The notes under the pieces are model-generated. The model made no database searches. It was not told the DNA's origin and was given only the letters and a program-made list of their open reading frames with translations. DNA of 64,000 nucleotides from Candidatus Kaiserbacteria bacterium (GTDB lineage Bacteria; Patescibacteriota; Minisyncoccia; Phycocordibacterales; UBA918): NCBI GenBank assembly GCA_019634005.1, contig JAHQWD010000002.1, positions 30,969 through 94,968 of the forward strand, given 5' to 3'. Shown one piece after another: positions 1 to 22,021 of this stretch (position 1 is its first letter; every line of letters begins with the position of its first letter). Made by a program: the position numbers and the translations under genes.

Positions 1-573
1 AGCATTGTTCATTTTGTTCTTGCTTCGTGAGAGAAGCTTTGCGGTAACGTCCTTCACACCAGCAAGCTCTAGTACAGTACGTACTGAGCTACCAGCCACA
101 AGTCCGCGACCTGGTGCAGGCATGATCATTACCTCACTTGAAGCGTACTTTGTCTGTACGTCATGTGGGATGTGTCCATCCTTATTCATACGAACCGTGA
201 TCATGTTCTTCTTTGCATCACGGTATGCCTTCTCAATCGCGAGCTGTGTGTCCGTTGCCTTTCCAACTCCCACACCAACTTTACCGCGCTTGTCTCCGAT
301 CACCATCGCAACGCTGAAACTGAAACGGCGTCCTCCCGCCATCACACGCGTTACGCGGCGAATACCAATAAGCTGCTGTTCGAACTCTGGTCGCATACGC
401 TCCCCTCGGCGTCCACCTCCGCGACGGTTCTGTCGTCGTGGGCGACGTGGGTTTCTCTTGCGTGGTGCGTCCGTATCGTTCGCAGGCTTTGCAGTCTTGT
501 CTTCAGTAGCTGGAGCAGCCTTCTGCTCCTCTGTCGCTACTGCGCCTGTCTCCTTTTTTTCTGTATCTGTCAT
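1..573 (-). CDS. rpsE: 30S ribosomal protein S5 (partial; C-terminus runs off window start)
   Basis: Reverse-strand translation from ATG at 573 gives MTDTEKKE...RRGGGRRGERMRPEFEQQLIGIRRVTRVMAGGRRFSFSVAMVIGDKRGKVGVGVGKA, a typical S5; follows L18 in spc-operon order. Listed + strand ORF 5..661 is antisense artefact. Confidence 0.9.
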   Translation of the reverse strand, partial: MTDTEKKETGAVATEEQKAAPATEDKTAKPANDTDAPRKRNPRRPRRQNRRGGGRRGERMRPEFEQQLIGIRRVTRVMAGGRRFSFSVAMVIGDKRGKVGVGVGKATDTQLAIEKAYRDAKKNMITVRMNKDGHIPHDVQTKYASSEVMIMPAPGRGLVAGSSVRTVLELAGVKDVTAKLLSRSKNKMNNA

Positions 574-596
574 ACGCTTTAGAGTATTTCTTATAA

Positions 597-941
597 TTAG
601 AAGGTTAGCCCTCCGTTACGAGCACCGTCTGCAAGTGCAGCGATGTTCCCCTGGTACTTGAATCCACCACGGTCAAATACGATAGTGGTGATTCCTGCTT
701 TCTTTGCACCCTCTGCGATTGCAGTTCCTACTTCCGTAGCACGCTCAGTAGGAGTTGCCCCCTTTGCCTTACGTGTGTCAGCAGACACGAGTGTCTTTCC
801 AGTTACATCATCGATAAGCTGGGCGTAGAGTGCTCTGTTTGAGCGGAACACAGCCAAACGTGGCTTTTCTGCGGTTCCTGAAACACGCGCACGGATTCGT
901 GCATGTCGGCGTGTTCGCTGCATTGTTTTACTTGTGTTCAT
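597..941 (-). CDS. rplR: 50S ribosomal protein L18
   Basis: ORF 597..986; ...[31 protein letters not shown]... is L18. Start moved to ATG at 941 (1 nt after L6 stop, AAGAAGG upstream); 923 and 986 are alternatives. Confidence 0.9.
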
Positions 942-942
942 A

Positions 943-1476
943 CTACACTGCCTTCTTACCCTGCTTTCTAATAATGTATTCACCAACGTAGTGGATTCCC
1001 TTGCCCTTGTATGGCTCAGGCTCCTTCACGGCGCGGATGTTAGCGGCAAACTGCCCCACAACCTCCTTGTCCACTCCGTTTACGGTGATGGTGTTCTTTT
1101 CTACCGCTACCGTCACCCCTTCAGGTGCGGTGAGTTCCACTGGGTGAGAGAATCCAACGTTTAGCTTGATTCCATTTCCCTGTGCCTCTGCACGGTATCC
1201 TACTCCCTCAATCTCGAGCTTCTTCTCGAAACCTTCGGTAACTCCTTCGATCATGTTGCGTGCGTGTGACGCGTATGTTCCCCAAAGAGCGCGTGCGGCA
1301 ATTGTCTCCTTTACGGGTGCAAATGAAACGGTACCGTCTGCAATGGTAACCTCCACGTCCTTCTTGATAGGGCGTGTCAGTGTTCCCTTTGGTCCCTTTA
1401 CAGTGAGGATATCATCAGCAAAGGTAACCTCTACTCCAGAGGGGATCGCAATTGGTTGTTTTCCTAGTCGACTCAT
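943..1476 (-). CDS. rplF: 50S ribosomal protein L6
   Basis: [17 protein letters not shown]...[18 protein letters not shown]; start trimmed to conserved MSRLGK at 1476. Confidence 0.92.
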
Positions 1477-1480
1477 ACCG

Positions 1481-1861
1481 TTACCAAATAATGAATAATT
1501 CCTCACCTCCTACGTTCTGCTTACGCGCCTCCTCTCCTGTGAGGATCCCCGCAGGTGTAGAGATGATGCGTCGTCCCTGTCCAAACTTCACGGGGAAGAT
1601 GTCCGCAGACTTAACGTAGAGACGTCGTCCTGGCTTTGAAATACGACGTACGTCGCTCACCGCACCGTCCTTCAAGGTAAGTGCAAGTGTCTTCTTTGCC
1701 TTCTTTCCTTGCTTTTCTGCTCCTGCAAGATATCCCTCCTTTACGAGAACATCTGCAATAGCGTGCTTCAGCTTAGAATATGGAAGTTCTACCTCCTCCT
1801 TGCCAACCATGCTGGCGTTCTTGATACGAATGATCAAGTCTGATACTGGGTCGTTTACCAT
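1481..1861 (-). CDS. rpsH: 30S ribosomal protein S8
   Basis: [16 protein letters not shown]... typical S8 N-terminus; spc order. Confidence 0.95.
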
Positions 1862-2040
1862 GATGATTTCTTTACGCCTGGTAAATGCCCCTGCTGTGCC
1901 TCTTCACGGAAGCAGATACGACAGAGATCAAAATCTCGCATGTATCCACGACCACGACCGCACTTAAAGCACCGTCGTACGACGCGGCTTTTGAACTTTG
2001 GTGTACGCTGTGAGCGTACGATGATAGATGTTCGTGCCAT
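1855..2040 (-). CDS. rpsZ: 30S ribosomal protein S14 type Z (zinc-binding)
   Basis: 61 aa with [20 protein letters not shown] zinc-ribbon Cys pairs; overlaps rpsH start by 7 nt. Confidence 0.9.
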
Positions 2041-2220
2041 CTGTATATAGGGCTAACTATTAAAACGTTTGAAAAGTGGTCTCACCTAGAAGATGGTGAC
2101 CGTTCTCTCCTTCCGCGACTCTGGGTAGCGTAAAAAACGCGTTCCCGACGGTTTTCCTTCTGAAAAACGGGTCAGGTGCGTCTGTTTCTACGTAAGAGTG
2201 CGTAAAACGTTATGGGGGCT

Positions 2221-2249
2221 ACTTTACACGGTTTGGGGGTGGGTGTCAA
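2221..2249 (-). promoter_or_regulatory. Sigma70-like promoter TTGACA-17-TAAAGT (minus strand) for rpsZ-rpsH-rplF-rplR-rpsE, followed by ~180-nt leader
   Basis: Minus-strand read cattgacacccacccccaaaccgtgtaaagt; shares TTGACACC extended -35 with other promoters in window. Confidence 0.45.
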
Positions 2250-2304
2250 TGAGAAAAAGGATGTGAACAAAATAATTTTGTGATAGGATAATCGTAAGAT
2301 AGTT

Positions 2305-2634
2305 ATGGAATCAATGGGAATCATCACAAGCAAAAATCTTGCTCATCAGAGAGACAAGGGCGAAGATGTGCGTTTGTCGATACACTGTAATCTGAGCGAG
2401 GATACTGCTTTCAGCATTCTTAGTAAAAAACCAACCTTTATAGAAGGGTTCGCAGGTTTGGTTGACTTCAGGGGAATTGATAGTCAATTTGAATCAACAT
2501 TACTGGAAGATGAAAGCTTAAGCGATACGTTTTTTGTAGGATGCGACTGGAAGATGGTCGGGAATTACTTTAATAAAGCATTCAAAAATTATGAGCAAGA
2601 AAAAGAAGAAGAACAAGGAACTTTCAGCAAGTAA
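2305..2634 (+). CDS. hypothetical protein (island gene A)
   Basis: 109-aa ORF in AT-rich region, no recognisable motifs, no SD; overlaps next ORF by 44 nt. Confidence 0.35.
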   Translation: MESMGIITSKNLAHQRDKGEDVRLSIHCNLSEDTAFSILSKKPTFIEGFAGLVDFRGIDSQFESTLLEDESLSDTFFVGCDWKMVGNYFNKAFKNYEQEKEEEQGTFSK

Positions 2635-3088
2635 GCCTGTCCAAAAAGATTCTGAACCGGAAGTTGAAGTAATTAGAGATCCAAAAGGACAAGTTGTTGG
2701 TTTCAGCGCTAGTAAAGCAGAGTTTTTCTCAGGACCCTTACCTCACCCTGATTTACTTAATAAATATAAAGAAGTAGACCCGAACGTTTTAGAGACAATA
2801 ACACGCATGGCAGAACGTGAACAAACCGAAAGATTGAAACGACAAAATAAGATAGTCTTGTTTGTTGGCGGTAAATCAATATTGGGTCTGATTTTTGCTT
2901 TTTTTGTGGTGTTGGCAGGAATTGCTGCGGGAGTCTATCTGCTTATGCATGATAAATCTGCCGAAGGTTTGTTTGTAGGAATAGCACCTTTTGCAATAGT
3001 TGTTGGTACGTTTATCTTGCAAACCTATTGGGAAAAAGACGAGAAGGAAACAGAGAAGGACAAGGCTGATCTACAAGACAATATATAA
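2591..3088 (+). CDS. DUF2335-like membrane protein
   Basis: FSGPLPHPDLLNKYKEVDP motif followed by MAEREQTERLKRQNK and two TM helices matches my recollection of the DUF2335 family common on phages/ICEs; Lys-rich N-terminus. Confidence 0.55.
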   Translation: MSKKKKKNKELSASKPVQKDSEPEVEVIRDPKGQVVGFSASKAEFFSGPLPHPDLLNKYKEVDPNVLETITRMAEREQTERLKRQNKIVLFVGGKSILGLIFAFFVVLAGIAAGVYLLMHDKSAEGLFVGIAPFAIVVGTFILQTYWEKDEKETEKDKADLQDNI

Positions 3089-3096
3089 ACTATTCC

Positions 3097-3318
3097 CTAA
3101 TGAAGACTTCTATCAACGTACTCCCTCGCTTTTTGCATACCGTGAACAAGTGCTCTGTCATCTGAAATATTACCCTCAACATTTTCTATGACAGCATGGG
3201 TTCCTTCCCATCCATTTTTAACTTTCCTCATAACTTCCCACCTAATAGCACAATGATTCTTTAAACGGTTGTGAATATTAGAAGTCAGTAGATAATTTTT
3301 ATATATTTCTTCCATCAT
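3097..3318 (-). CDS. hypothetical small protein (island gene C, 73 aa)
   Basis: ORF 38 nt downstream of PIN-like gene on same strand; no motifs recognised. Confidence 0.35.
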   Translation of the reverse strand: MMEEIYKNYLLTSNIHNRLKNHCAIRWEVMRKVKNGWEGTHAVIENVEGNISDDRALVHGMQKAREYVDRSLH

Positions 3319-3356
3319 TGAGTTGTATTATAACCGACTACCATTTCAGATATGTT

Positions 3357-3794
3357 CTATTTAATATCCGATAAGGACTTAATGTCTATATCAGATTTAA
3401 ATTCATTTTTAATTCTTTTGGACAAGCCAACATCTCCAGTGAACACATAAATTGTTTCAGTGGGATCGAAAAGTTGTTCTTTCTTCAAAGCTGCAAATCT
3501 CTCAATCAAAGTATGAACGGAGGCTAAAATTGAGATATCGCCAAAGCCAGTCATGTTGAAAAAAGATCTTCCTCCGTGATTATTTAGCATTTCCTTATAC
3601 TTATTGACATAGATGGGCTCATCAAATTCATCAATGTCCGATAACCTCAGGATATTCTTGGGAAGCTTCTTACCAAAGATAGTTTGGGTCATCTCTACTT
3701 CTTCCACAACATCTGGTGCCATATAGTACTTTTTGGAAGGAGAAATTCCATTCTTAAAAATATATGTAATTCCATTTGAATCAATTAAATTCAT
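3357..3794 (-). CDS. PIN-like domain protein (putative nuclease/toxin; island gene D)
   Basis: 145 aa; N-terminal MNLIDSN (PIN beta1-like Asp), acidic PDVVEEVE, later GDISIL and FTGDVGL Asp positions compatible with a PIN/NYN fold; start ATG overlaps stop of upstream gene (ATGA). Confidence 0.4.
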   Translation of the reverse strand: MNLIDSNGITYIFKNGISPSKKYYMAPDVVEEVEMTQTIFGKKLPKNILRLSDIDEFDEPIYVNKYKEMLNNHGGRSFFNMTGFGDISILASVHTLIERFAALKKEQLFDPTETIYVFTGDVGLSKRIKNEFKSDIDIKSLSDIK

Positions 3795-5050
3795 AGACTT
3801 AGTTCACTTCTATACTTCAGAAAACCTTTTTTCTGTGGCGCTCCCCAGATTAAATGTTGCGCTTGAGTATTCGGCAATGTTCCACCTTTTATGCCCAAGT
3901 TTATTGTCTCAAAAGATTTTAGACCACAAAATTTACTTACAGAAGTTGAAACTTTAGGAGTTCTAGGATGGCCTGTGTTTTTCAATTTTATTGGTTTTGG
4001 CTTGAGACTATCAAATTCTGACGATGATATGACTCCTCTCCTTCTCAGAGTAACCAATAAAGCAGTTGGTGATACCTTGAACTTGTTTGCCAATTCATCT
4101 CGCCTACTCTCTGTGACCTTTGTCCCTCGAATTTTTTCTGTCTCTGAACGCGGTATGAGTAATTCTGAAGTTATTAAGTGAAGTCTTACCTCCTTAATAG
4201 TTGTTCCTGTAATTTTAATTGTAAAATTTGGCTCAAGTATAAATTCATATTGATCTAACCCAATAATCGTTAACAAATAAAACAAGGTGTATATCTGCCT
4301 ACTGGCAACTTCGTCCTGATTAGTTTCTGATGGCAGAAAAATGAAGGGGACATGGTCGTCTTTTATTGCAAAACCACTCGTATTTTTATAAACGCTACTT
4401 GGTACCACTCGTGTGTTCGGGAGAATCTTATGTGCAAGTGTTCCTTGCGAAACATTTATATTTTTGTTTCCCACCTTTTTTATTAGTGCTTCCAGAGTAG
4501 CTTCCTTCCCCCTATCCCGCCACATCCAGTCTCTATCAATGTCAAAATGGTCTAAGATTTTATCTGCAGCAGATTTTATACTTTCATACTTCAAAGACCC
4601 GCAAAAACTATTTGATGGAAAGATTCCTGTACTTACAAGATAATTTTGCTGACGAATCAACCGATCCACAATGCGTTTCGGAGTGATCTTTCCTTGTCCT
4701 TTCCTCTTGGCAACAATTTTCTTTGAGACCTTATGCTGCCTTTGAGTCTCAATATGATTAATTGTCTGGTTTAGGTTTGTCGTGCTAAGAAAGAACATCT
4801 GCCAAGGAATGAGTATTTTTTCGCTTTCTTCTTTCAGATTTTTGAATGTAATAGAACCAGCAGAAAATGCCTGCTGAAATATTTTTCTGTTTATAAGTTT
4901 TTCTTCGGGATAAAGGTTGAGAATTCTTTTAATAACAGAGTCATCTATCTCTACCGAATTCTGCCCATTTACTGACACCCACATACTTAATAGGATATTT
5001 TTGAGTTCTTTCGGACATAGTGCGCAACATATAGAGAAAGTAGCACACAA
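3791..5050 (-). CDS. hypothetical 419-aa protein with C-terminal helix-turn-helix-like segment (island gene E)
   Basis: Long ORF; RRDELANKFKVSPTALLVTLRRRGVIS resembles an HTH; no HExxH, P-loop or recombinase motifs seen. Track start is TTG at 5050 (SD-like AAAGGA 5 nt upstream); ATG at 4984 (MWVSVNGQ) alternative. Confidence 0.5.
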   Translation of the reverse strand: MCATFSICCALCPKELKNILLSMWVSVNGQNSVEIDDSVIKRILNLYPEEKLINRKIFQQAFSAGSITFKNLKEESEKILIPWQMFFLSTTNLNQTINHIETQRQHKVSKKIVAKRKGQGKITPKRIVDRLIRQQNYLVSTGIFPSNSFCGSLKYESIKSAADKILDHFDIDRDWMWRDRGKEATLEALIKKVGNKNINVSQGTLAHKILPNTRVVPSSVYKNTSGFAIKDDHVPFIFLPSETNQDEVASRQIYTLFYLLTIIGLDQYEFILEPNFTIKITGTTIKEVRLHLITSELLIPRSETEKIRGTKVTESRRDELANKFKVSPTALLVTLRRRGVISSSEFDSLKPKPIKLKNTGHPRTPKVSTSVSKFCGLKSFETINLGIKGGTLPNTQAQHLIWGAPQKKGFLKYRSELSL

Positions 5051-5073
5051 AACATCCTTTTTCTAGGAGAGAA

Positions 5074-5105
5074 TTGACAATACACTTATATATGGTATCA
5101 TTCAA
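5074..5105. promoter_or_regulatory. Back-to-back divergent promoters: plus TTGACA(5074-5079)-16-TATCAT(5096-5101) for membrane gene; minus TTGAAT(5105-5100)-17-TATTGT(5082-5077) for island operon E-D-C
   Basis: Read directly: gaattgacaatacacttatatatggtatcattcaa; plus -35 overlaps minus -10. Confidence 0.4.
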
Positions 5106-5133
5106 CTTAGCATTTCCAATAGGGAGAAGACCG

Positions 5134-5481
5134 ATGGAAAATCAAAGTGCTGTTCTCTACCAAGATAAACCCTGGCTGAAGATTCTGGCATTCATTGTCA
5201 TCTGGATGATTCTTGCTGGCGAGGTTTGGGCGTATCTGGAACTTTTGCGCACCGTCAATGACCACAAGCGGAGCGCCTTCGGCGCACATGTTCCCATCCC
5301 CGACGGCGTTGGGATCATGTATATGACCATGCTGTTCTCAGTAGGGCCCGTTGGCCCCTTTCTGATACAGCTCGTCGGAAGCATGTTCGGCCAAATCATC
5401 ATCGCCGCTGTTCTTCTGCTCGGAGCAGGGGGCAATTGGCTGCTCTACAGTATCCTCGAGAATTTCGGATACTTCACCTAA
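5134..5481 (+). CDS. hypothetical polytopic membrane protein (115 aa, higher GC)
   Basis: ATG at 5134 preceded by SD AGGGAGAAG; hydrophobic ILAFIVIWMILAGEVWAYL and IIIAAVLLLGAGGNWLLY; track ORF 5074 uses TTG upstream. Confidence 0.55.
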   Translation: MENQSAVLYQDKPWLKILAFIVIWMILAGEVWAYLELLRTVNDHKRSAFGAHVPIPDGVGIMYMTMLFSVGPVGPFLIQLVGSMFGQIIIAAVLLLGAGGNWLLYSILENFGYFT

Positions 5482-5506
5482 GGGATCCCGAGAACGACCC
5501 GACCAA

Positions 5507-5576
5507 CCGCCGAACACACCCGTTCGGCGGTTTAACTTTACTCTTCCACCAAAAAACCACCCTCCCGGGTGGTTTT
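5507..5576. terminator. Two stem-loops; second (5553-5576, aaaaccaccc-tccc-gggtggtttt) is a bidirectional rho-independent terminator between membrane gene (+) and rplE (-)
   Basis: ccgccgaacacacccgttcggcgg + tttaacttta, then aaaaaaccaccctcccgggtggttttt; T/A runs both sides. Confidence 0.6.
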
Positions 5577-5580
5577 TCAT

Positions 5581-6117
5581 CTACTCAGCCTCAACCTTCT
5601 GAAGCGGAAGTCCGACATGCCGAAGCAATGCCTCTGCCTCTTCTTTGGTTTTCGCAGTAGTCACGAGTGTGATAGCAAATCCAAACACATCTCGAATCTC
5701 TTCATCTGAAGTCTCAGGGAAGATCGTGTGCTCCTTGATTCCCAAGGTGTAGTTCCCCATCTCATCGATGGCGGTCACCTTAAGACCACGGAAGTCACGG
5801 GTGTTTGGAAGCGCAACGTGAATCAACTTATCGAGGAAGTCATTCATACGCTCCCCACGAAGGGTTACCTGATATCCAATGATATCTCCCTCACGAAGCT
5901 TAAATGTCGCAATAGACTGCTTCGCAGGACGTGGAGATGGCTTCTGTCCGGTAATCTTCGCAAGACGATCTTGCATAAGCTCGATCTTCTTCTTGTCGTC
6001 GATCTTTCCCGTACCAGTTGATACCACCACCTTCGTGATGCGAGGTGCCTGCATCACATTCTTGTAAGAGAATGTGCCTTTCAGTGCCTCAAATACAGAT
6101 TGTAGTTTTTCTTTCAT
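5581..6117 (-). CDS. rplE: 50S ribosomal protein L5
   Basis: MKEKLQSVFEALKGTFSYKNVMQAPRITKVVVSTGTG... typical L5. Confidence 0.95.
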   Translation of the reverse strand: MKEKLQSVFEALKGTFSYKNVMQAPRITKVVVSTGTGKIDDKKKIELMQDRLAKITGQKPSPRPAKQSIATFKLREGDIIGYQVTLRGERMNDFLDKLIHVALPNTRDFRGLKVTAIDEMGNYTLGIKEHTIFPETSDEEIRDVFGFAITLVTTAKTKEEAEALLRHVGLPLQKVEAE

Positions 6118-6125
6118 AATACGTT

Positions 6126-6425
6126 CTATATCTTAGTACCCTTTGGACGAGTAACACGAACTTTCTTGCCGTCCACCACATCGTATCCCACACGTGCTGG
6201 CTTCTTACCATCAAGGATCGCAACGTTAGAGACGTGGATTGGCATAGGCTTCTCCACAATCTGTCCCGTAGATCCACGACGACGTGCCTTCTGGTGGCGA
6301 ACCGCAACGTTCACCCCATCAACGATGACCTTATCCGCAGAAGAGATAACCTCAAGGACTTCTCCGTCCTTTCCTTTATCCTTTCCGGAAATCACCATTA
6401 CTTTGTCTCCTTTGTGTATTTTCAT
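6126..6425 (-). CDS. rplX: 50S ribosomal protein L24
   Basis: MKIHKGDKVMVISGKDKGKDGEVLEV... KOW motif; start trimmed to ATG at 6425 (track ORF extends to 6515 over rplN). Confidence 0.92.
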   Translation of the reverse strand: MKIHKGDKVMVISGKDKGKDGEVLEVISSADKVIVDGVNVAVRHQKARRRGSTGQIVEKPMPIHVSNVAILDGKKPARVGYDVVDGKKVRVTRPKGTKI

Positions 6426-6435
6426 AGGCAATTCG

Positions 6436-6807
6436 TTACACAACCTCAGGTGCGAGGGATACAATTTTCTGATAACCCGCTTCAGCAATCTCACGTGGGA
6501 TTGGACCGAACACACGGTTTGCGCGTGGTTCTGGCTTCTCCTTGTCCACGAGGACTACTGCATTCTCATCAAATGAGATGTATGAACCATCCTTGCGGCG
6601 GAATGGCTTTCGCTGACGTACGACAACGCCATACACAACGTCCTTCTTCTTTACGAGCTTACGTGGCTCAGCAGTCTGTACAGAGAGTACAACCTTCTCA
6701 CCGAGCTCTGCGTAGCGCTTCTTCGATCCTCCGAGAACCTTGAACACGCGTCCAATCTTTCCTCCGGAGTTATCTGCAATCTTTACGATAGTCTGTGGTT
6801 GAATCAT
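6436..6807 (-). CDS. rplN: 50S ribosomal protein L14
   Basis: MIQPQTIVKIADNSGGK... classic L14. Confidence 0.95.
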   Translation of the reverse strand: MIQPQTIVKIADNSGGKIGRVFKVLGGSKKRYAELGEKVVLSVQTAEPRKLVKKKDVVYGVVVRQRKPFRRKDGSYISFDENAVVLVDKEKPEPRANRVFGPIPREIAEAGYQKIVSLAPEVV

Positions 6808-6818
6808 AAGTCAATTTA

Positions 6819-7076
6819 TTACTTAACCAAGGTAAAGCGCTTACGCTTTGAAATTGGACGTGTTTCTGTAATCTCGACCTTGTCTCCCATCTGTGCAGTG
6901 TTCCCTGCATCATGCACAAGATACTTCTTGCGACGACGCATGAACTTTTTGTACTTTGGATGCTTCACGTACCGCTCCACAAGAACGGTGATCGTGTCCT
7001 GCATCTTTGTAGACACAACGGTACCACGTAGGGTACGTCCGCCGGTCTTTGTTTTTGTTTCGTTTTCCATAGACAT
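6819..7076 (-). CDS. rpsQ: 30S ribosomal protein S17
   Basis: ...RTLRGTVVSTKMQDTITVLVERYVKHPKYKK... S17 OB-fold signature. Confidence 0.93.
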   Translation of the reverse strand: MSMENETKTKTGGRTLRGTVVSTKMQDTITVLVERYVKHPKYKKFMRRRKKYLVHDAGNTAQMGDKVEITETRPISKRKRFTLVK

Positions 7077-7080
7077 TTCT

Positions 7081-7272
7081 CTACACGTTCTTACGCGCGT
7101 TTAATTCAGTGAGAGCCTGCGCAATCTCCTTTTTCGCAGATCGCATAGCCTTCACATCTCGCATGCCACTTCCTGCAGATGCAAAGCGAAGTTCACGAAG
7201 CGCCTCTCGCTTCTCCTTCACCACCTTCTGTAGGTCTGCATCACTTTTGTTCTGAATATCTTTCATAGGCAT
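7081..7272 (-). CDS. rpmC: 50S ribosomal protein L29
   Basis: 63 aa, KSDADLQKVVKEKREALRELRF typical L29. Confidence 0.9.
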   Translation of the reverse strand: MPMKDIQNKSDADLQKVVKEKREALRELRFASAGSGMRDVKAMRSAKKEIAQALTELNARKNV

Positions 7273-7706
7273 TATGCAGTTGTCTCTTCACGAGTGACAA
7301 AACGTGCTTTTATAGGGAGTTTCGCGGTCGCCTTGCGGAATGCCTCGCGCGCAACGTCCTCAGAAACACCGTCAATTTCGAATAATACTCGACCAGGGCG
7401 TACCTCGAATACGAAGTGATCAGGATCTCCCTTACCCTTACCCATACCTACCTCAGCAGGCTTCTTGGTAATTGGCTTGTCAGGGAAAATACGAATCCAG
7501 ATCTTACCTGTCTTTCCGAGTGTACGAGAGATCACACGACGTGCCGCCTCAATCTGATTTGAACGTACACGTGACTGTGAAGTCGCCTTCAAACCGTACG
7601 CACCAAACGATACGGTGATACCACGAGTATCAGGGCGCTGCAGCTTCTCTGGGTGCTTACGCCCAACCTGCCATTTACGATGCTTTACTTTCTTTGGAAA
7701 CAACAT
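7272..7706 (-). CDS. rplP: 50S ribosomal protein L16
   Basis: [16 protein letters not shown]... typical L16. Confidence 0.95.
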
Positions 7707-7711
7707 AAGCC

Positions 7712-8425
7712 TTATCCGCGGTTATTCTCTCGACCTCCTCGGCGTGGTGCAGACGCACCATCTTTGCGATCTCCGAAGATATCTCCCTTATAAATCCAGA
7801 CCTTGATTCCGATTACACCGTACGGAAGAATTGCTCGCTCGGAAGCGAAATCAATGTCAGCACGAAGAGTCTGTAGTGGAATACGTCCCTTCTTTGCCTC
7901 CTCCTTACGTGCCATCTCAGCGCCACCAAGACGACCAGATACGATAATTCGTACTCCAAGTACGTCACGGTTCGCCATTACCTTCTCTACCGTCTGCTTC
8001 AGCACACGACGGAATGGCATACGCTTCTCAAGTCCTTCTACCACCATCTGTCCTACCACAGATGCACTTGATTCTGGAGAGCGGAGCTCTTCGATATCAA
8101 GTTTCACCTCAGGCTTTACAGAAAGCTTCAGTGTACGAAGCAGCATATCTACCTTCTTACGAAGTTTCTGTGCTCCCTCTCCACTACGTCCGATCACGAG
8201 ACCTGGACGTGAAGTAGTGATGATGATGCGATAGATGTTCTCATCTCGCTCGATCTCAACGCTCGCAACGTACATACCCTTGAGCTCTTTGCTCAATAGC
8301 TTACGTACAGACGCGTCGGTACGAACATACTCACGAAAACGCTTTGGGTCATTCGTAATCCAGCGAGACTGCCAGTCACGAATGATTCCAAGACGCTGTG
8401 CATATGGATGTGCTACGTGTGTCAT
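7712..8425 (-). CDS. rpsC: 30S ribosomal protein S3
   Basis: MTHVAHPYAQRLGIIRDWQSRW... KH domain GRSGEGAQKLRK; start trimmed to 8425 (track ORF overlaps rplV). Confidence 0.93.
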   Translation of the reverse strand: MTHVAHPYAQRLGIIRDWQSRWITNDPKRFREYVRTDASVRKLLSKELKGMYVASVEIERDENIYRIIITTSRPGLVIGRSGEGAQKLRKKVDMLLRTLKLSVKPEVKLDIEELRSPESSASVVGQMVVEGLEKRMPFRRVLKQTVEKVMANRDVLGVRIIVSGRLGGAEMARKEEAKKGRIPLQTLRADIDFASERAILPYGVIGIKVWIYKGDIFGDRKDGASAPRRGGRENNRG

Positions 8426-8435
8426 AGTGAATACT

Positions 8436-8759: not shown

Positions 8760-8764
8760 TCAGA

Positions 8765-9266: not shown

Positions 9267-9270
9267 TATA

Positions 9271-12208: not shown

Positions 12209-12211
12209 ATG

Positions 12212-13117: not shown

Positions 13118-13160
13118 TTGAACACGCGAAGTGTCCAAGGGACAAAGGGTCAAAGACCAA
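13118..13160 (-). terminator. Rho-independent terminator after inserted high-GC gene
   Basis: Minus read gtcccttggacacttcgcgtgttcaagggac + ttttgtatac. Confidence 0.5.
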
Positions 13161-13170
13161 AGTGCAGAGG

Positions 13171-13766: not shown

Positions 13767-13857
13767 TGACGTTTTTTCCTTTCCAGGATTTCGTCGTTGA
13801 CAAAATACTCTAAACTACTTTTTGGTATACTATATCTACAGAAGTTTGTCAAACACA

Positions 13858-13886
13858 ACAAAACCCGCCAAACGGCGGGTTTTGTC
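13858..13886 (-). terminator. Rho-independent terminator after rpsJ (aaaacccgccgtttggcgggttttg on minus)
   Basis: 6-7 bp GC stem + U-tract; followed by TTGACA-17-TATACC promoter-like sequence for the inserted gene. Confidence 0.55.
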
Positions 13887-13903
13887 TACTGTGACAACAA
13901 TCC

Positions 13904-14260
13904 TTACATCATCTTCACGTCAATGTTGACGCCAGATGGCAAAGAAAGATTAGTGAGTGCCTCAACGACTTTCGCACTCGGATTCAAGATATCGATAACA
14001 CGCTTGTGCATTCGCATCTCGAATTGTTCTCGCGCATCTTTGTACACGAATGTTGAACGATTCACCGTATATTTCTTAATCTCAGTGGGAAGCGGGATTG
14101 GACCAACAACCTTCGCGTCAAAACGCATAGCGGTGTCGATAATCTGCTTTACTGAGGCATCAAGAATTTTGTGCTCGTACGCACGGACTCGAATCCGGAG
14201 TTTATTGATGTCCCCAGGCATCGCGTCCTTCTTTGCTTTAGTGTCTGTTTTTGTTGTCAT
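13904..14260 (-). CDS. rpsJ: 30S ribosomal protein S10
   Basis: ...[43 protein letters not shown]... typical S10; ATG at 14221 (SD GAAGGA) is an alternative start. Confidence 0.93.
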
Positions 14261-14286
14261 AGATCAGTTTTGTTTGAGTCTTCGCC

Positions 14287-15477
14287 TTACGCGATAATCT
14301 TTGTTACCACTCCAGCTCCAACAGTCTTACCACCCTCACGGATAGCGAAGTTCTTCTGCTCCTCGAGCGCAATTGGCGCTACAAGTTTCACCTTAAAGGT
14401 TGCAGTGTCTCCTGGCATAACCATCTCTGTTCCCTCGGCAAGCGTAACGTCTCCTGTTACGTCTGTCGTTCCGATGTAGAACTGTGGCTTGTATCCAGAG
14501 AAGAATGGTGTGTGACGACCTCCTTCGTCCTTACCAAGTACGTATACCTCAGCCTCGAACTCTGTGTGCGGAGTGATAGATCCCTTCGCAGCAAGTACCT
14601 GTCCTCGGTGTACGTCCTCCTTCTTAGTTCCGCGGAGAAGAATTCCCGCGTTGTCTCCAGCCTGTGCAGAATCTAGAGACTTGTTGAACATCTCAACACC
14701 AGTAACGGTGGTGACGGTAGTATCCTTGATACCAACGATCTCTACTTCGTCTCCAACCTTAACCTGACCGCGCTCTACACGACCAGTTACTACTGTTCCA
14801 CGTCCTTCAATTGAGAAGATGTCCTCAATTGGCATAAGGAATGGCTTGTCGAGCTCTCGCTCTGGCTCTGGGAAGTACTCATCCATCGCATCTACAAGCT
14901 CAATAACCTTCGCTCCCCAGTCGCCTGCAGGCTCCTCAAGCGCCTTAAGTCCTGAACCCTTGATGATTGGTGCATTCTCACCATCAAATCCGTTTGCAGT
15001 AAGAAGCTCACGAAGCTCCTCCTCTACGAGCATTACCATCTCCTCATCGTCAACCATGTCGGTCTTGTTAAGGAATACGATAATCTTTGGTACTCCAACC
15101 TGCTTTGCAAGAAGTACGTGCTCACGAGTCTGAGGCATCGCTCCATCAGTCGCAGCTACTACGAGTACCGCACCATCCATCTGTGCAGCACCAGTGATCA
15201 TGTTCTTGATGTAGTCGGCGTGACCTGGCGCATCGATGTGCGCGTAGTGACGCTTTGGTGTCTCGTACTCAGAGTGAGAAAGAGAAATAGTAATACCACG
15301 CGCCTTCTCCTCTGGCGCCTTGTCAATGTCTCCAACGTCCTTAAGGTTTGCGGCGTAGCCGTCTCCCTTTGCGTTGAGCACATTTAGAATTGCGGCAGTA
15401 AGCGTAGTCTTACCGTGGTCAACGTGACCAATAGTTCCTACGTTTACGTGCGGCTTTGAACGATCAAAATCTGCCAT
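14287..15477 (-). CDS. tuf: elongation factor Tu
   Basis: [30 protein letters not shown]... full-length EF-Tu. Confidence 0.97.
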
Positions 15478-15738
15478 ATTCGTAAATAATTTAGCTTATA
15501 TTCTATCCGCACCGTACTGCCATTGTATTAAATGGAGGTACGTATGGAGTGGTAAGGGCGCGAGAACGCAGTGCCTTACCGCTACATACATAAATTCGAT
15601 AAAGAGCGATGCTCCTCACCGACCCTCTACACGCCAAAAAGCGCATAAAGAGCGATGCGGTGTCCGCCATGGTACATGAGTGCGCCATATTTTGCAATAC
15701 CAAAAAGCCGCGCCGATGTGGCGCGACTTTATTCATTG

Positions 15739-16218
15739 TCAGTGAACGAGCTTCGTTTCCTCGGCATGCTGAACGAGAAGGGTATCGAAAAGCTTTTGCT
15801 CTGCCGCAAAGGCATCCTCGAGTACTTCGTACTCGCCAGCAATAGTGCTTTCAGTAGACACGTGCACTTCTTGCTCTGTGTGAAGCAGTGCATGGTGTGC
15901 GTCTTGAGGAACGCGACCGCAGATACACGGTGAGCCAGTGTTGAACTGCTCCATCCAATGCGTCAGTTTCGGGCACTGCTTGCCCGAAACACGCGCTGCG
16001 ATGATTACTGAGAAATACGGGTCTTTGCTGTTCGACCCATATGCGACAATCAGTCGCGTCACGGGAATTCCCAGCAAACGAACACTTGTTCCGTGAATCC
16101 CAACAGATCCGTGTATCTGGTACCAGCCCTCGTGCCTAAATGCAAACAGGGCGAGGGTACTTTTCATCGTTCTGAAGCTTGGCGTTACCACCAGAGCCTT
16201 CTTTCCGTCGAACGGCAT
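15739..16218 (-). CDS. hypothetical protein (159 aa)
   Basis: ORF with terminator-like hairpin downstream (15690-15725); weak AYGSN and HGT/CICGR motifs, not assignable. Confidence 0.45.
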   Translation of the reverse strand: MPFDGKKALVVTPSFRTMKSTLALFAFRHEGWYQIHGSVGIHGTSVRLLGIPVTRLIVAYGSNSKDPYFSVIIAARVSGKQCPKLTHWMEQFNTGSPCICGRVPQDAHHALLHTEQEVHVSTESTIAGEYEVLEDAFAAEQKLFDTLLVQHAEETKLVH

Positions 16219-16341
16219 GACACTCTCCCTTTTCTGTTTTACCGTAGTTTATACTACACCCAGATCTGTTATTTGACAATAACTCTTATACACTGTCTAA
16301 AATACACCGTATTGATTTTGTCTTTTGATACAATTGAGGGA

Positions 16342-17466
16342 ATGCTTAAAAGTCTTCTCAAAAAGATACGTTCAAAAAAGAAATACGAGCGGCTTATAAA
16401 GGTGGTGATCGATAGTGCGGCAATCAAGCATAATCTCTCTGTATTCCAGACACAGTACAATGTCGCTGTCGCTCCAGTACTGAAGAGTAATGCGTACGGA
16501 CACGGTCTCGTTGAGATAGGAAACATAGTAGACACAGAAGAGATTCCTTTTATTTGTGTCGACACGTTCTTTGAGGCACTCACACTCCGCAGTAGTGGTA
16601 TACAAAAACCCATTCTCATCATCGGCTACACACCCCATGAGACAATCGTGCACAATAAACTGAGAAACACTTCTTTTGCAGTCATAAGTCTTGAAGAGCT
16701 TAAACGACTTGCCACTTCAAAAAAACCCGCTTCAATACACCTCAAGATAGACACAGGCATGCATCGCCACGGTGTCCATGTTGAAGAACTCCATGAAGCC
16801 CTTAATCTCATTGCACACTCTTCGCTTATACTCGAAGGTGTCTACACACACCTTGCAGATGCAGACACCAAAGGTTCTACACTTACCGATACGCAGATTG
16901 ATGCGTGGAATACTGCGGTACAGACCATACGATCCCACATCCCAACCGTCACATACTTCCACTGCGGACACTCTGCGGGAAGTTTCTATTCCAAGCATAT
17001 AGATGCTAATGGTATTCGCTTGGGAATTGGGCTCTACGGAGTCAATGTCGGACTTGATGACCTAGATCTCAAACCAGCGTTAGAGATGAAGACAAGAATC
17101 ACCAGTATCAAAACGCTCAAACAAGGAGAAACCATCGGGTACAATGGCACCTTTACCGCAGAAAAAGACATGCGTGTGGCAACAATCCCTGTTGGATATA
17201 ACGAGGGACTTGACCGAAGACTTTCAAATAAAGGGAGTGTGTTAGTACACGGAACAGTCTGCCCTATTCTTGGAAGAGTTAACATGAATATCACGTCTAT
17301 TGATGTATCCCAGATCCCAGACATTAAACTCGATGATGAAGTGACCATCATTAGTGGTGACAAGACACAGCCAAACTCCATAGAGCACCTGGCAAAGCTT
17401 TGCGAAACTATCCCCTATGAACTCCTTGTTCATATACAGAGTACTCTCTACAGGAAAGTTATATAA
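16342..17466 (+). CDS. alr: alanine racemase
   Basis: VAVAPVLKSNAYGHGLVEIG (PLP-Lys region) and C-terminal YNEGLDRRLSNKGSVLVHG...PILGRVNMNITSIDV typical Alr; start trimmed to ATG 16342. Confidence 0.9.
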   Translation: MLKSLLKKIRSKKKYERLIKVVIDSAAIKHNLSVFQTQYNVAVAPVLKSNAYGHGLVEIGNIVDTEEIPFICVDTFFEALTLRSSGIQKPILIIGYTPHETIVHNKLRNTSFAVISLEELKRLATSKKPASIHLKIDTGMHRHGVHVEELHEALNLIAHSSLILEGVYTHLADADTKGSTLTDTQIDAWNTAVQTIRSHIPTVTYFHCGHSAGSFYSKHIDANGIRLGIGLYGVNVGLDDLDLKPALEMKTRITSIKTLKQGETIGYNGTFTAEKDMRVATIPVGYNEGLDRRLSNKGSVLVHGTVCPILGRVNMNITSIDVSQIPDIKLDDEVTIISGDKTQPNSIEHLAKLCETIPYELLVHIQSTLYRKVI

Positions 17467-17520: not shown

Positions 17521-18119
17521 TTAGAACTTGTACTTGATCGCCACCTGAACAGTTGTGGTATCACCGAAGATGCCCACCTCTGTTCCAACTTCAAACGGCA
17601 GGGATTTCACGTTCATCCACACCTGTGGTTGGGCGACATTCGGGGCATTGTGCCGTATCCGAACGAAACCCGAGGTATAGATGTCGATGTTATCCGTCAG
17701 TCGGACATTCTCCGACAACCATGCGAACTTAACCTGTGCTCGATCGCCAGCATCATGCGTTACCGCAGGATACCAAGTGGCTCTTACGAACTTCATTCCC
17801 GGAACTGAGAGTTGGATACCAGCCCCAGCTTTGACGGTGAAGCCGCCGTTGGTGGCGCCAACCTCCGTCGAAGCGAAAGCGTATTTGCTCAGAGAGCAAT
17901 CGACGACGTGGTTTGTGAAGAAGTCCTTCGACGTGTTCGTGACATAGAGATCAACGAACCCGAAACCTCCGCATGTGCCTTTTTTCCAGGCGTATTCGGG
18001 AGTAACGGTCGTGAGACCGCCGTTGTTCACCGCCTGTAGTATATGAACGTCCCCCACAAGGAAGTCATCTGCGTAGACTGGTGTGGCAAGTAGCATTAGT
18101 GCCAAAGAGCTTTTTAACA
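17521..18119 (-). CDS. secreted beta-rich protein, possible outer-membrane beta-barrel (OmpW/OmpA-like); uncertain
   Basis: GTG start at 18119 (SD AGGAGGA) gives signal peptide VLKSSLALMLLATPVYA|DD; alternating hydrophobic pattern and C-terminal ...VQVAIKYKF (terminal Phe as in OM barrels). Confidence 0.5.
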
Positions 18120-18155
18120 CGCGATCCTCCTCTTTTTGATTGCGCTGTCCCTCGT

Positions 18156-18184
18156 ATAATAACACACTGATAACCTCATGTCAA
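18156..18184 (-). promoter_or_regulatory. Sigma70-like promoter TTGACA-17-TATTAT (minus) for beta-rich protein gene
   Basis: Minus read ttgacatgaggttatcagtgtgttattat. Confidence 0.5.
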
Positions 18185-18210
18185 AAAAGACCCCTTTCGG
18201 GGTCTTTTTT
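18184..18210. terminator. Rho-independent terminator after fusA (aaaaaagacccctttcggggtctttttt)
   Basis: Perfect 7-bp stem GACCCC/GGGGTC flanked by A6/T6. Confidence 0.65.
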
Positions 18211-20388: not shown

Positions 20389-20510
20389 AAATATATCTAT
20401 TCAATAATAATTACCTCCTTTCAGTCCTTACGTGGCGAACGTAAAAGAAAAAGGTCCTCAGACCTTAGGTGCGCACACTATACGGTATTTAAGGAAAGAA
20501 AACAATACGT

Positions 20511-20792
20511 TTAGAGGTCAAAAAGTACAATTGTTGTCCCTCGAATAAAGTCCTGATGGTCTTTCGGCTTTACTCTCTCTACATAAACGGCAAGCTCATC
20601 AAGGGTAAAACCGTTGTAGTGTGGCTCTAAATCATTGAGTTCACACGCAATCTCAAAGACGAGACAAGCTGTGCGCTTATTCCCATCCGTGAATGGATGG
20701 TCTTTAATAAGAAAATAAAGAAGCGCAACCAGTTTTTCTTCTGGTCGCTCATAAATATCAACGCCGAAATGCGTCTGATTAATTATTCTCTG
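20511..20792 (-). pseudogene. Fic/Doc-family (death-on-curing) toxin remnant lacking start codon/N-terminus
   Basis: Minus frame from TGA at 20795-20793 reads QRIINQTHFGVDIYERPEEKLVALLYFLIKDHPFTDGNKRTACLVFEIACELND...; HPFxDGNKR is the Doc catalytic motif. No ATG/GTG/TTG in the 93 codons; putative N-terminal part (MKEKKLFQ...TENN) in another frame. Confidence 0.5.
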
Positions 20793-20851
20793 TCAAAGAC
20801 TCAACTGTTTTCTGTGCGTTTGGAGTAAGTGGGAAGGCTATATGTCCTCGA

Positions 20852-21019
20852 CTATGAAGAAGTTTGTACGTTAGACAGACGATCTGCCACGTTGTCGGTT
20901 GAAATAACTTTTTTTCCTTCATCGTAATCACGAAGCGATTCAATCACCTGCTTATTTTCTTTAAGCTGGCGCTCTGCAATTTGAGTGATATTCTTTTTTC
21001 GCTTCAAAAAATTAAACAT
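20852..21019 (-). CDS. small ORF upstream of Doc remnant (55 aa), possible antitoxin-like partner; speculative
   Basis: MFNFLKRKKNITQIAERQLKENKQVIESLRDYDEGKKVISTDNVADRLSNVQTSS; position relative to Doc remnant only; no strong SD. Confidence 0.25.
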   Translation of the reverse strand: MFNFLKRKKNITQIAERQLKENKQVIESLRDYDEGKKVISTDNVADRLSNVQTSS

Positions 21020-21051
21020 GGTACTTATACTGTGCTACAAAGCCTCCTTAC

Positions 21052-21077
21052 AAAAAAGCCCCTCTCGGGGCTTTTTC
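21052..21077 (-). terminator. Rho-independent terminator after rpsG (aaaaagccccgagaggggcttttttg on minus)
   Basis: 6-bp GC stem + U-tract 4 nt after rpsG stop. Confidence 0.6.
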
Positions 21078-21081
21078 TCTT

Positions 21082-21555
21082 CTACCACGCAAAGTGTGCA
21101 AATGCGCGGTTGGCTTCTGCCATCTTGTGTGTGTCTTCCTTCTTCTTTACTGCTGATCCCTCCTCGTTTGCTGCGAGCATGAGCTCTTGTGCAAGTGCTT
21201 TATGCATAGGGGTTCCCTTTCCACTGCGTGCTGCTGAGATAATCCAACGGAGTGCAAGTGCAAGACGTCGCTCTGGACGCACCTCACGTGGCACCTGGTA
21301 GTTTGCACCACCGACACGACGGCTTCGTACCTCCATCTGTGGACCTGCATTAGAGAGTGCCTTTTCGAAGATCTCAAGTGGCTCTCCACCATTCTCCTTT
21401 GCATTCTTAATCTCCTCGAACGCTCCATACACGATCTTACGTGCAGTTTCCTTCTGTCCACGAAGCATCACGTAGTTGATAAGACGTGCTACTTCGATTG
21501 AATTGTACCGCTCATCAGGTTGTACCTGTGGCTTCTTTTTGATTGGTCTTCGCAT
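21082..21555 (-). CDS. rpsG: 30S ribosomal protein S7
   Basis: ...[27 protein letters not shown]...[11 protein letters not shown]... typical S7. Confidence 0.95.
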
Positions 21556-21607
21556 ATTATTTCTATCGTTATCTAAAGCGAATATAAACTATTTATGAGT
21601 AATTGTG

Positions 21608-22021
21608 CTATTCACCCTTCGGCTTCTTTGCTCCGTAGCGTGAACGTCCTCGTCGTCGTTCATCCACACCAGTCGCATCGTACTTACCACGGACAACAGT
21701 GTAGTTCACACCGATGTCCTTCACGCGTCCTCCACGGACGAGCACAACAGAGTGCTCCTGAAGTGTGTGTCCCATACCTGGGATGTATGCGGTAATTTCC
21801 TGTCCGTTGGTAAGGCGTACACGTGCAATCTTTCGAATCGCAGAGTTCGGCTTACGCGGAGTCTTGGTCGTTACACGCGTACACACACCACGCTTGAATG
21901 GTGAGTTATATGCGTTTGGTCGGTTCTTAACCTTGTTGAAACCAGACTGCAATGCAGCCACCTTTGATTTCTTTGCAGGGTCTCGACGACTCTTACGTGT
22001 TAATTGATTAATTGTTGCCAT
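21608..22021 (-). CDS. rpsL: 30S ribosomal protein S12
   Basis: [14 protein letters not shown]...[48 protein letters not shown]; start trimmed to ATG 22021 (track ORF 22231 is upstream extension). Confidence 0.95.

Follow-up and report, generated by a model that had tools for sequence, protein, structure and literature searches.

A str-S10-spc ribosomal gene cluster in Paceibacteria with conserved gene order, probably inherited break points and lineage-specific cargo

The str-S10-spc ribosomal protein gene cluster of Candidatus Kaiserbacteria bacterium (assembly GCA_019634005.1), which occupies positions 1-22021 of a 64,000-nt stretch of contig JAHQWD010000002.1 (hereafter the window; all coordinates are positions in it), keeps its canonical gene order but is opened at five junctions by non-ribosomal DNA. 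We found that the same five junctions are open in related genomes, where they hold different genes, so that the cuts appear to have been inherited and only the inserted genes to be specific to each lineage. We put the probability that the break points are inherited, that their cargo is lineage-specific and that the cluster has been re-partitioned into separate units with its order kept at roughly 0.78. The original prediction, made from the letters of this window, had described the canonical order, intrinsic terminators after rpsG, fusA, rpsJ and rplB, foreign or non-ribosomal genes at rpsG/fusA, fusA/tuf, rpsJ/rplC, rplB/rpsS and rplE/rpsZ, and a division by terminators and new promoters into at least six transcription units. 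That description is borne out at sequence level by the results below, with six predicted ribosomal units. Its account of the layout as five remarkable independent insertions into an intact operon of this genome is not, since relatives are open at the same five junctions and the leaders of the units are conserved.

Gene content and layout of the cluster

All 22 of the str, S10 and spc genes were present on the minus strand, in the order rpsL, rpsG, fusA, tuf, rpsJ, rplC, rplD, rplW, rplB, rpsS, rplV, rpsC, rplP, rpmC, rpsQ, rplN, rplX, rplE, rpsZ, rpsH, rplF, rplR. Matches to NCBIfam equivalogs identified 20 of them, with rpsZ of the Zn-type, and rplF and rplR were recognized from their translations. 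The genes are arranged as follows:

21608-22021, minus strand: rpsL (S12), first gene of unit 1; TIGR00981 equivalog, 184 bits
21082-21555, minus strand: rpsG (S7), last gene of unit 1; TIGR01029, 191 bits
18214-20388, minus strand: fusA (EF-G), unit 2; TIGR00484, 1047 bits
14287-15477, minus strand: tuf (EF-Tu), first gene of unit 3; TIGR00485, 675 bits
13904-14260, minus strand: rpsJ (S10), last gene of unit 3; NF001861, 139 bits
10298-12832, minus strand: rplC-rplD-rplW-rplB, unit 4; NCBIfam equivalogs, internal gaps of 3-10 nt
5581-9091, minus strand: rpsS-rplV-rpsC-rplP-rpmC-rpsQ-rplN-rplX-rplE, unit 5; NCBIfam
597-2040, minus strand: rpsZ-rpsH-rplF-rplR, start of unit 6; NF005974, NF001109 and translations

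Sixteen of the 21 junctions between these genes measure 52 nt or less. The remaining five are long, and each is occupied by non-ribosomal sequence:

rpsG/fusA: 693 bp
fusA/tuf: 2736 bp
rpsJ/rplC: 1071 bp
rplB/rpsS: 1206 bp
rplE/rpsZ: 3540 bp

The window does not show packing into three tight operons with borders at tuf/rpsJ and rpsQ/rplN. Both of these canonical borders are closed, at 26 nt (14260-14287) and 11 nt (6807-6819), and we detected no hairpin or terminator at either. They are closed in all relatives too, so the operon map has been redrawn, which goes beyond mere fragmentation. The usual linkage of rpoBC to str is absent as well, given that no rpoB- or rpoC-sized open reading frame (ORF) lies upstream of rpsL anywhere in the window (the region noted being 22022-26400). 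Neither tRNAs nor Rfam families were detected in 1-22021, and the absence of tRNAs excludes integration linked to them.

The source is a metagenome-assembled genome (MAG), and the junctions could in principle be chimeric joins introduced during assembly or binning. Continuity of the assembly, which the original prediction had marked for checking, was confirmed at rpsJ/rplC, rplB/rpsS and rplE/rpsZ by a separately assembled Logan contig that is 100% identical to positions 1528-15205 (13.7 kb), while exact look-ups of fusA, rpsG and a beta-barrel protein encoded at fusA/tuf found no second assembly of rpsG/fusA or fusA/tuf. Dozens of unrelated MAGs and metagenome contigs carry the same architecture, and we regard an artefact as hardly credible.

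The same junctions in related genomes

Searching 80 related loci, each taken with 10-kb flanks, by tblastn gave the positions of the 22 genes, from which the length of each junction was obtained. The set comprised the 65 closest loci, from MAGs of Paceibacteria and Parcubacteria, and 15 more distant ones. Junctions longer than 300 bp were scored as expanded, and the denominators given are the loci scorable at each junction (21-52 of the closest 65). The best matches to L4 among species-representative genomes were Patescibacteria MAGs labelled Kaiserbacteria, Paceibacteria, Parcubacteria, Nomurabacteria or the like, with identities of 73% or less. Expansion at the five junctions was distributed as follows:

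rplB/rpsS: 93% of 46 closest loci (median 1.09 kb, maximum 7.3 kb); distant 15, 0%
fusA/tuf: 83% of 29 closest loci; distant 15, 89%
rplE/rpsZ: 65% of 34 closest loci; distant 15, 0%
rpsG/fusA: 57% of 21 closest loci; distant 15, 0%
rpsJ/rplC: 44% of 52 closest loci; distant 15, 40%

Among the other 16 junctions in the closest 65 loci, 15 were expanded in 0% and rplC/rplD in 3%, so the five junctions open in the window are exactly the five open in the clade. A neighbour-joining (NJ) tree of L3, L4, L23 and L2 placed the compact genomes as an outgroup, and the junction pattern tracked this phylogeny. The rplB/rpsS junction was open across the ingroup with three exceptions, and expansion of rpsJ/rplC together with a structured leader upstream of rplC (described below) was mainly confined to one nested clade that contains the window.

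These distributions bear directly on the possibility that five recent, independent insertions entered an intact operon of this genome, each bringing or creating a terminator and a promoter. Such a history would fit the cargo of the window, which is unique among the 80 related loci and spans several classes of composition (a low-GC island, a remnant of a Doc toxin gene that is also low in GC, and genes with a high GC content at third codon positions, GC3), as well as the recombinases and integrases that adjoin homologs of the rpsJ/rplC cargo elsewhere. It is contradicted by the identical five junctions, and no others, being open clade-wide, by terminators and promoter-like sites at matching places in relatives, by leaders of rplC, rpsS and tuf that predate this genome, and by a junction pattern that follows the phylogeny; were the same five of 21 junctions hit by independent choice, we infer that the chance would be 1 in 20,349. 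We consider independent insertion very unlikely and already largely refuted. The original prediction had taken a fragmented layout shared by relatives and free of compositional anomalies as evidence against itself, and this applies by half. The layout did prove to be ancestral, but the cargo is unshared and compositionally anomalous, which suggests that the break points are old and their contents lineage-specific.

Terminators and promoter-like sites

We detected a predicted intrinsic terminator, consisting of a GC-rich stem-loop and a U-tract right after the stop codon, at the 3' end of the ribosomal unit upstream of each open junction. One of these, downstream of rplE, was absent from the original prediction; the other four lie at the positions given there. 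Together with the promoter-like sites found before ribosomal and cargo genes, they are:

21056-21073, minus strand: intrinsic terminator 3' of rpsG; -17.0 kcal/mol, z = -4.6
18187-18206, minus strand: intrinsic terminator 3' of fusA; -24.5 kcal/mol, z = -6.9
13859-13884, minus strand: intrinsic terminator 3' of rpsJ; -22.1 kcal/mol
10257-10284, minus strand: intrinsic terminator 3' of rplB, from a terminator scanner; -18.1 kcal/mol
5555-5574, minus strand: intrinsic terminator 3' of rplE; -18.3 kcal/mol
18156-18184, minus strand: promoter-like TTGACA-N17-TATTAT with a TG extension, before the barrel gene; 11 of 12 consensus matches
12984-13011, minus strand: rplC promoter-like site TTGCAA-N16-TATACT, a consensus match
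9238-9266, minus strand: rpsS promoter-like site TTGACACC-N15-TACTAT, from a pattern search
2221-2249, minus strand: rpsZ promoter-like site TTGACACC-N15-TAAAGT, from a pattern search

All five terminator hairpins are composed of an A-tract, a GC-rich stem and a U-tract, with folding energies of -17.0 to -24.5 kcal/mol and z from -4 to -7, and none of 200 shuffles folded as well as any of those named. When the terminators of cargo genes and leaders are included, hairpin energies span -17 to -27.5 kcal/mol. A strict terminator pattern was also present in relatives 3' of rplB (30/43), rpsJ (16/23), rplE (12/22), rpsG (7/12) and fusA (10/24), against about 0 in shuffles. Scanning relatives for a TTGACA-type pattern within 300 nt upstream of the start recovered promoter-like sites before rpsS in 34/43, tuf in 16/24 and rpsZ in 13/22, where shuffles gave 1-2.

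Within the window, TTGACA-N17-TAnnnT occurred six times against 0.76 expected, with four of the six in the cluster region, and the extended form TTGACACC-N15-TAnnnT was found at 2221-2249, 9238-9266 and 33984-34012 against 0.06 expected by chance. The recurring host promoter motif proposed earlier therefore holds at 2221 and 9238; at 18156 the site instead reads TTGACATG, and near 55898 TTGACACC is followed by a spacer one base longer (18 nt). The third extended copy, TTGACACCCACCC at 33984-34012 on the plus strand, is near-identical to that of rpsZ and lies upstream of a 440-aa ORF (34076-35398). A separate observation concerns many loci of more distant relatives (L022, L025, L028, L033 and L036 among them), where the promoter leads directly into a short GC hairpin and then a run rich in U that reaches the start codon, for example ACGCUCCUCGGAGCUUUAUUUUUUAUG; this design is present before both rpsS and rps14.

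Conserved leaders of the ribosomal units

Comparison of the spacers with those of relatives by blastn revealed about 100 conserved nt directly upstream of rplC, and structured leaders were also found upstream of rpsS and tuf, with a candidate one upstream of rpsZ:

12929-12970, minus strand: P1 hairpin of the rplC leader; covariation
12880-12932, minus strand: terminator hairpin of the rplC leader; folding
9092-9237, minus strand: rpsS leader; RNAalifold, 23 pairs, 11 with compensatory changes, in six sequences
15478-15700, minus strand: tuf leader, about 200 nt; RNAalifold, 36 pairs, 15 with compensatory changes
2041-2220, minus strand: rpsZ leader, upstream of rpsZ-rpsH; hairpin GGAGAGAACGGUCACC...GGUGAGACC

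The rplC leader begins directly after the -10 box and consists of P1 followed by a long terminator hairpin (-27.5 kcal/mol), with rplC 50-80 nt further on. P1 has the consensus 5' CCUA-Y-GU-N-[variable stem]-N-AC-CWA-UGGG, in which the internal loop is invariant. On 19 sequences, 92.6% of cells were paired, compared with 22-49% in slid controls, and 31 double changes were counted; 0 of 500 shuffles reached the observed covariation, which also holds on 92 distinct sequences. We found this leader in at least 99 sequences (including L001-L012, L020-L034, L049 and L082-L161), and a covariance model run over 1.26 Mb matched solely upstream of rplC. Scanning metagenomes for the pattern gave at least 120 matches. 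Of the 80 metagenome loci retrieved, 72 have rplC at a distance of 74-226 nt downstream and eight are on contigs too short to tell; rpsJ, where present, is usually 0.45-3.9 kb upstream of the leader. Neither the rplC nor the rpsS leader matched any family of Rfam 15, even at E <= 10 on the isolated regions, and searching the whole region against Rfam gave only tRNAs outside it and sub-threshold terminator look-alikes. Within Rfam 15 and the searchable literature, the rplC leader is, as judged from the aligned sequences, a previously undescribed conserved element.

We also considered mimicry of rRNA by the rplC leader. Its model gave one weak match to the E. coli rrn operon, at 16S positions 335-384 (L207 606-655; 11.3 bits, E of about 0.05), in a segment that reads ACUCCUACGGGAGGCAGCAG...CACAAUGGGCGCAAG. 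The known 16S pairing there differs from that of the model, and the match is probably due to chance.

The rpsS leader was compared in the window and L002, L004, L007, L009 and L010. It comprises a 19-bp hairpin with the apical sequence GRCCGUUACM, containing an invariant CCGUUAC loop; a small terminator-like hairpin and the 5' motifs GUUCCAACCUCA and CCCUGGCAGG are also part of it. Like the rplC leader, it thus has the covarying structure in the 5' untranslated region (UTR) of a ribosomal protein unit that is expected of an autoregulatory leader. The tuf leader shares the motifs GCUCUUUCACAC, GUUCUCGCGCC and GUGUGCGG with L002-L005 and L012; GUUCUCGCGCC and GUGUGCGG are invariant, a long-range helix closes the element, and GCAUCGCUCUUUAU is present twice in the copy of the window. 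In the rpsZ leader, the hairpin GGGAGA..GGUCACC....GGUGAGAC..CUCC recurs in L003, L007 and L012 and may represent an S8-type site.

Weighing an inherited partition against convergence and long operons

Several points weigh against an inherited partition of the cluster. Only 44-65% of relatives are open at three of the junctions (rpsG/fusA, rpsJ/rplC and rplE/rpsZ), which requires that junctions were also opened independently more than once or closed again, and a second small clade (L030, L032 and L045) is open at rpsJ/rplC without the leader. The phylogeny is a simple NJ tree of four proteins, and the closest relative has 73% L4 identity, which leaves the age of the window's own cargo not datable. 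The promoter pattern was found upstream of rplC in 1/23 relatives and of fusA in 3/12, as a pattern that does not cover the window's own rplC site TTGCAA-N16-TATACT, and promoter-like counts across the whole region are not above shuffled expectation. The terminators could be read through, the promoter matches are matches to a consensus only, and no convincing antiterminator was found for the strong terminator of the rplC leader.

The partial opening of three junctions and the leaderless clade, together with the expansion of fusA/tuf in the outgroup too, could mean that these junctions are intrinsically fragile or permissive and were opened many times by convergence, with no single ancestral split. 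Convergence does not readily explain why rplB/rpsS is open in 93% of the ingroup and in 0% of the outgroup, why the rplC leader shows homology, beyond mere analogy, throughout the nested clade and in at least 99 sequences, or why the rplB/rpsS spacers of nine genomes have a diacylglycerol kinase gene in common. On balance we find it unlikely, and favor inherited break points.

The cluster might instead still be transcribed as one or a few long operons, with hairpins that serve as leaky attenuators or stabilize the RNA and with cargo that consists of co-transcribed passengers. Most cargo ORFs of relatives are co-directional with the ribosomal genes, as would be expected of passengers, the regional promoter-like counts noted above are no higher than in shuffles, and the strong terminators contained in the 5' leaders themselves require some read-through. 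Long operons are, however, difficult to reconcile with an alanine racemase gene (alr) encoded between fusA and tuf on the opposite strand and with a convergent gene that faces rplE. The hairpins, moreover, have the canonical A-tract, GC stem and U-tract at -17 to -24.5 kcal/mol, and relatives have promoter-like sites before rpsS, tuf and rpsZ far more often than shuffles do. We consider long operons quite improbable, and separate transcription of the units is the reading carried forward here.

Cargo genes at the open junctions

The cargo of the window was compared with a host baseline of 0.464 +/- 0.021 ORF GC (minimum 0.413) and a mean GC3 of 0.40. The genes found, from rpsG/fusA to rplE/rpsZ, are:

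20852-21019, minus strand: rpsG/fusA, 55-aa ORF upstream of the Doc remnant; GC 0.36, no family match
20520-20780, minus strand: rpsG/fusA, decayed Doc/Fic toxin gene with motif HPFTDGNKR; Pfam Fic E = 4.8e-9, GC 0.41
17521-18120, minus strand: fusA/tuf, secreted predicted 12-stranded beta-barrel ending in KYKF; AlphaFold2 (AF2), Foldseek, GC3 0.60
16342-17466, plus strand: fusA/tuf, alr; TIGR00492 equivalog, 293 bits, Pfam Ala_racemase_N and Ala_racemase_C
15739-16218, minus strand: fusA/tuf, 159-aa ORF; GC3 0.57, own promoter-like site at 16251-16279
13171-13767, minus strand: rpsJ/rplC, accessory gene of about 190 aa; GC3 0.64
9332-10210, minus strand: rplB/rpsS, three small predicted membrane-protein ORFs of about 111, 82 and 48 aa; ORF calls
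5092-5481, plus strand: rplE/rpsZ, small membrane-protein gene convergent with rplE; GC3 0.64
2305-4984, mixed strands: rplE/rpsZ, low-GC island; GC 0.34-0.39
3791-4984, minus strand: low-GC island, ImmA-like 397-aa gene; phrog_2439, homologs named 'Zn-dependent peptidase ImmA' by JGI
3357-3794, minus strand: low-GC island, 145-aa partner
3097-3318, minus strand: low-GC island, 73-aa ORF
2591-3088, plus strand: low-GC island, DUF2335 membrane protein; DUF2335, phrog_3996
2305-2634, plus strand: low-GC island, 109-aa ORF

Several of these genes are compositionally foreign, with GC of 0.34-0.41 or, in four of them, GC3 of 0.57-0.64, and alr is host-like (GC 0.44). These composition classes imply at least three compositional origins. 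PADLOC gave no match for the cargo proteins, and Pfam and NCBIfam gave none for most.

At rpsG/fusA, the sequence HPFTDGNKR fits the Doc/Fic motif HxFx(D/E)GNxR, and three-frame translation showed that the N-terminal part of the gene is out of frame or lost behind stop codons. There is no intact Doc reading frame with a recognizable antitoxin at this junction, and the 55-aa ORF upstream of the remnant matches no family. The 159-aa ORF at fusA/tuf is followed by a terminator of its own (15704-15730; -18.6 kcal/mol), and so is the accessory gene at rpsJ/rplC (13113-13143; -22.5 kcal/mol). Homologs of the latter (69% identity or less) occur in other Parcubacteria, where they adjoin recombinase, resolvase, rve integrase, AbiTii, RHS and diversity-generating retroelement (DGR) genes and not ribosomal genes. 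In two cases (L205 6001-8412 and L206 202-2613), the homolog directly adjoins a DGR with bAvd and a reverse transcriptase, and this family may be a DGR target.

The three membrane-protein ORFs at rplB/rpsS have no family matches. An internal promoter-like site lies among them at 9546-9574, and gene calling on the Logan contig also recovered those of 82 and 48 aa; the 111-aa call is uncertain. The low-GC island at rplE/rpsZ departs from the host in composition as an integrative island would, and homologs of its ImmA-like protein are widespread in Parcubacteria MAGs. We detected no flanking or att-like repeats at its edges and no integrase family match in any cargo ORF, in a region (1-22021) that also lacks tRNAs.

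Cargo turnover across relatives

We pooled 317 proteins, comprising 300 gap ORFs from relatives and 17 cargo ORFs from the window, and these formed 278 clusters, 259 of which were singletons. Comparison of the window cargo with the 80 related loci by blastn and tblastn ruled out conserved cargo, as tblastn gave two matches only, both at other junctions. Some cargo families recur at different junctions in different genomes. Gap families identified in relatives with Pfam and PHROGs include diacylglycerol kinase, secreted peptidoglycan (PG)-binding proteins, SAICAR synthetase, orotidine monophosphate (OMP) decarboxylase, amino-acid kinase and short-chain dehydrogenases, in addition to MazF/PemK, PIN and Doc toxins, PhoH and endolysins. 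The kinase gene (DAGK_prokar) has a fixed position, being found in nine genomes (L016, L030, L032, L038, L039, L045, L047, L054 and L062) in the rplB/rpsS spacer just upstream of rpsS and never at another junction. The list of the 25 commonest Pfam or PHROG families of the gaps, which stops short of the rarer ones, includes no integrases.

A porin-like barrel protein at fusA/tuf

The protein ending in KYKF had been likened to an outer-membrane barrel, and this holds at the level of the predicted fold. Its AF2 model (pLDDT, the predicted local distance difference test score, of 90.9) has 12 antiparallel strands, and the family alignment shows an N-terminal hydrophobic leader and a terminal F, so that the predicted model combines the signal peptide, even strand number and C-terminal aromatic residue of porins. 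All Foldseek matches in the PDB at E <= 0.001 were transmembrane beta-barrels, mostly natural outer-membrane proteins: FapF, KdgM (template modelling score, TM, 0.63), PcoB (TM 0.59), OmpG and porins, along with two designed or engineered entries. KdgM/NanC-type porins, PcoB and FapF resemble the window protein in signal peptide, 12 strands, alternating hydrophobicity and C-terminal Phe, with TM-scores of 0.56-0.64 but only about 10% identity, and no Pfam match was found at E <= 0.01 that would place it by sequence in a known porin family.

A word-indexed protein search matched only the protein itself, and an exhaustive HMMER search recovered a family of 28 representative clusters among 1.84 billion proteins, the named members of which belong to Paceibacterota and Patescibacteria MAGs. 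Patescibacteria are treated as monoderm in recent literature, and a porin-like barrel family is odd in a lineage regarded as having a single membrane. Its presence raises a question about the envelope of these episymbionts or their contact with hosts.

Proposed mechanism and significance

We propose that the Paceibacteria lineage, including this genome, kept the str-S10-spc order and may long ago have split the cluster into shorter transcription units: rpsL-rpsG, fusA, tuf-rpsJ, rplC-rplB, rpsS-rplE and rpsZ onward. Each upstream unit would end in a strong intrinsic terminator and each downstream unit would start with its own sigma70-like promoter, and from their sequence features the units are probably transcribed separately, with the hairpins and sites acting as terminators and promoters in vivo. 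Conserved structured 5' leaders, each with a terminator-like hairpin, precede at least rplC, rpsS and tuf. By analogy with the action of L4 on the E. coli S10 leader, these leaders could be autoregulatory attenuators governed by the product of their own unit. The spacers between terminator and promoter would accept DNA without disturbing ribosomal gene expression or causing polar effects, and would thus serve as standing bays where genes are gained, lost and exchanged; such permissiveness may explain why they are insertion hot spots. The proposal in its full form, in which Paceibacteria redrew the operon map early, equipped the units with their own product-sensing RNA leaders and used the spacers as safe harbours for cycling accessory genes, is a tentative one that we would not expect to hold in every part.

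In the textbook view, selection has frozen the gene order of the S10-spc cluster, which also forms the backbone of the 16-protein trees that give uncultured bacteria their phylogenetic place. A class that keeps this order yet tolerates kilobases of changing cargo at fixed internal positions offers a natural experiment that separates the truly constrained links of the cluster from the others. A gap of as much as about 7 kb within a 'syntenic ribosomal block' is nothing unusual in this clade and is not to be taken as a sign of misassembly. The leaders upstream of rplC, rpsS and tuf add at least three candidate cis-regulatory RNAs in Patescibacteria. If the spacers are indeed safe harbours, their cargo includes remnants of toxin-antitoxin systems and modules of the ImmA type, as well as a porin-like barrel in an organism that supposedly has a single membrane.

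Comparison with known systems

The gene content of the window and its order from rpsL to rplR are the same as in the str-S10-spc cluster of E. coli and B. subtilis. The operon borders of that cluster are at tuf/rpsJ and rpsQ/rplN, where the window is closed (26 and 11 nt) and without a terminator, whereas the new borders at rpsG/fusA, fusA/tuf, rpsJ/rplC, rplB/rpsS and rplE/rpsZ fall inside the canonical operons. Cyanobacteria and plastids have rps10 downstream of tufA and an S10 operon that begins with rpl3. The window likewise has rpsJ attached to tuf and rplC opening a new unit. Unlike cyanobacteria and plastids, the lineage of the window has variable cargo of up to several kb and a specific structured leader before rplC, and the further splits at rplB/rpsS and rplE/rpsZ are not known from their arrangement.

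In E. coli, L4 controls the S10 leader by transcription attenuation. The S10 and rplC leaders are alike in that the 5' UTR of the L3-L4-L23-L2 unit has a conserved hairpin with a terminator after it, but the terminator of the rplC leader is much stronger than a typical leaky attenuator. Twenty candidate ribosomal leaders have been described, including one for L4 that precedes rplC in archaea and one for L2 that precedes rplB-rpsS in alphaproteobacteria, and none of the 20 is from Patescibacteria (Eckert & Weinberg 2020, PMC7247131). We found no ribosomal leaders of Patescibacteria described in Rfam 15 or the searchable literature, and no description in that literature of split ribosomal operons in the candidate phyla radiation (CPR) or Parcubacteria.

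Insertions of a few genes between the operons of this cluster, followed by their separation, are known from Gammaproteobacteria and Bacilli and are the basis of the invasion-separation model (Brandis 2021, PMC8046335). That model mainly concerns insertions between operons, usually followed by full separation. The sites invaded here instead lie inside the canonical S10, spc and str operons, and they recur class-wide, with the gene order intact and the border between S10 and spc closed.

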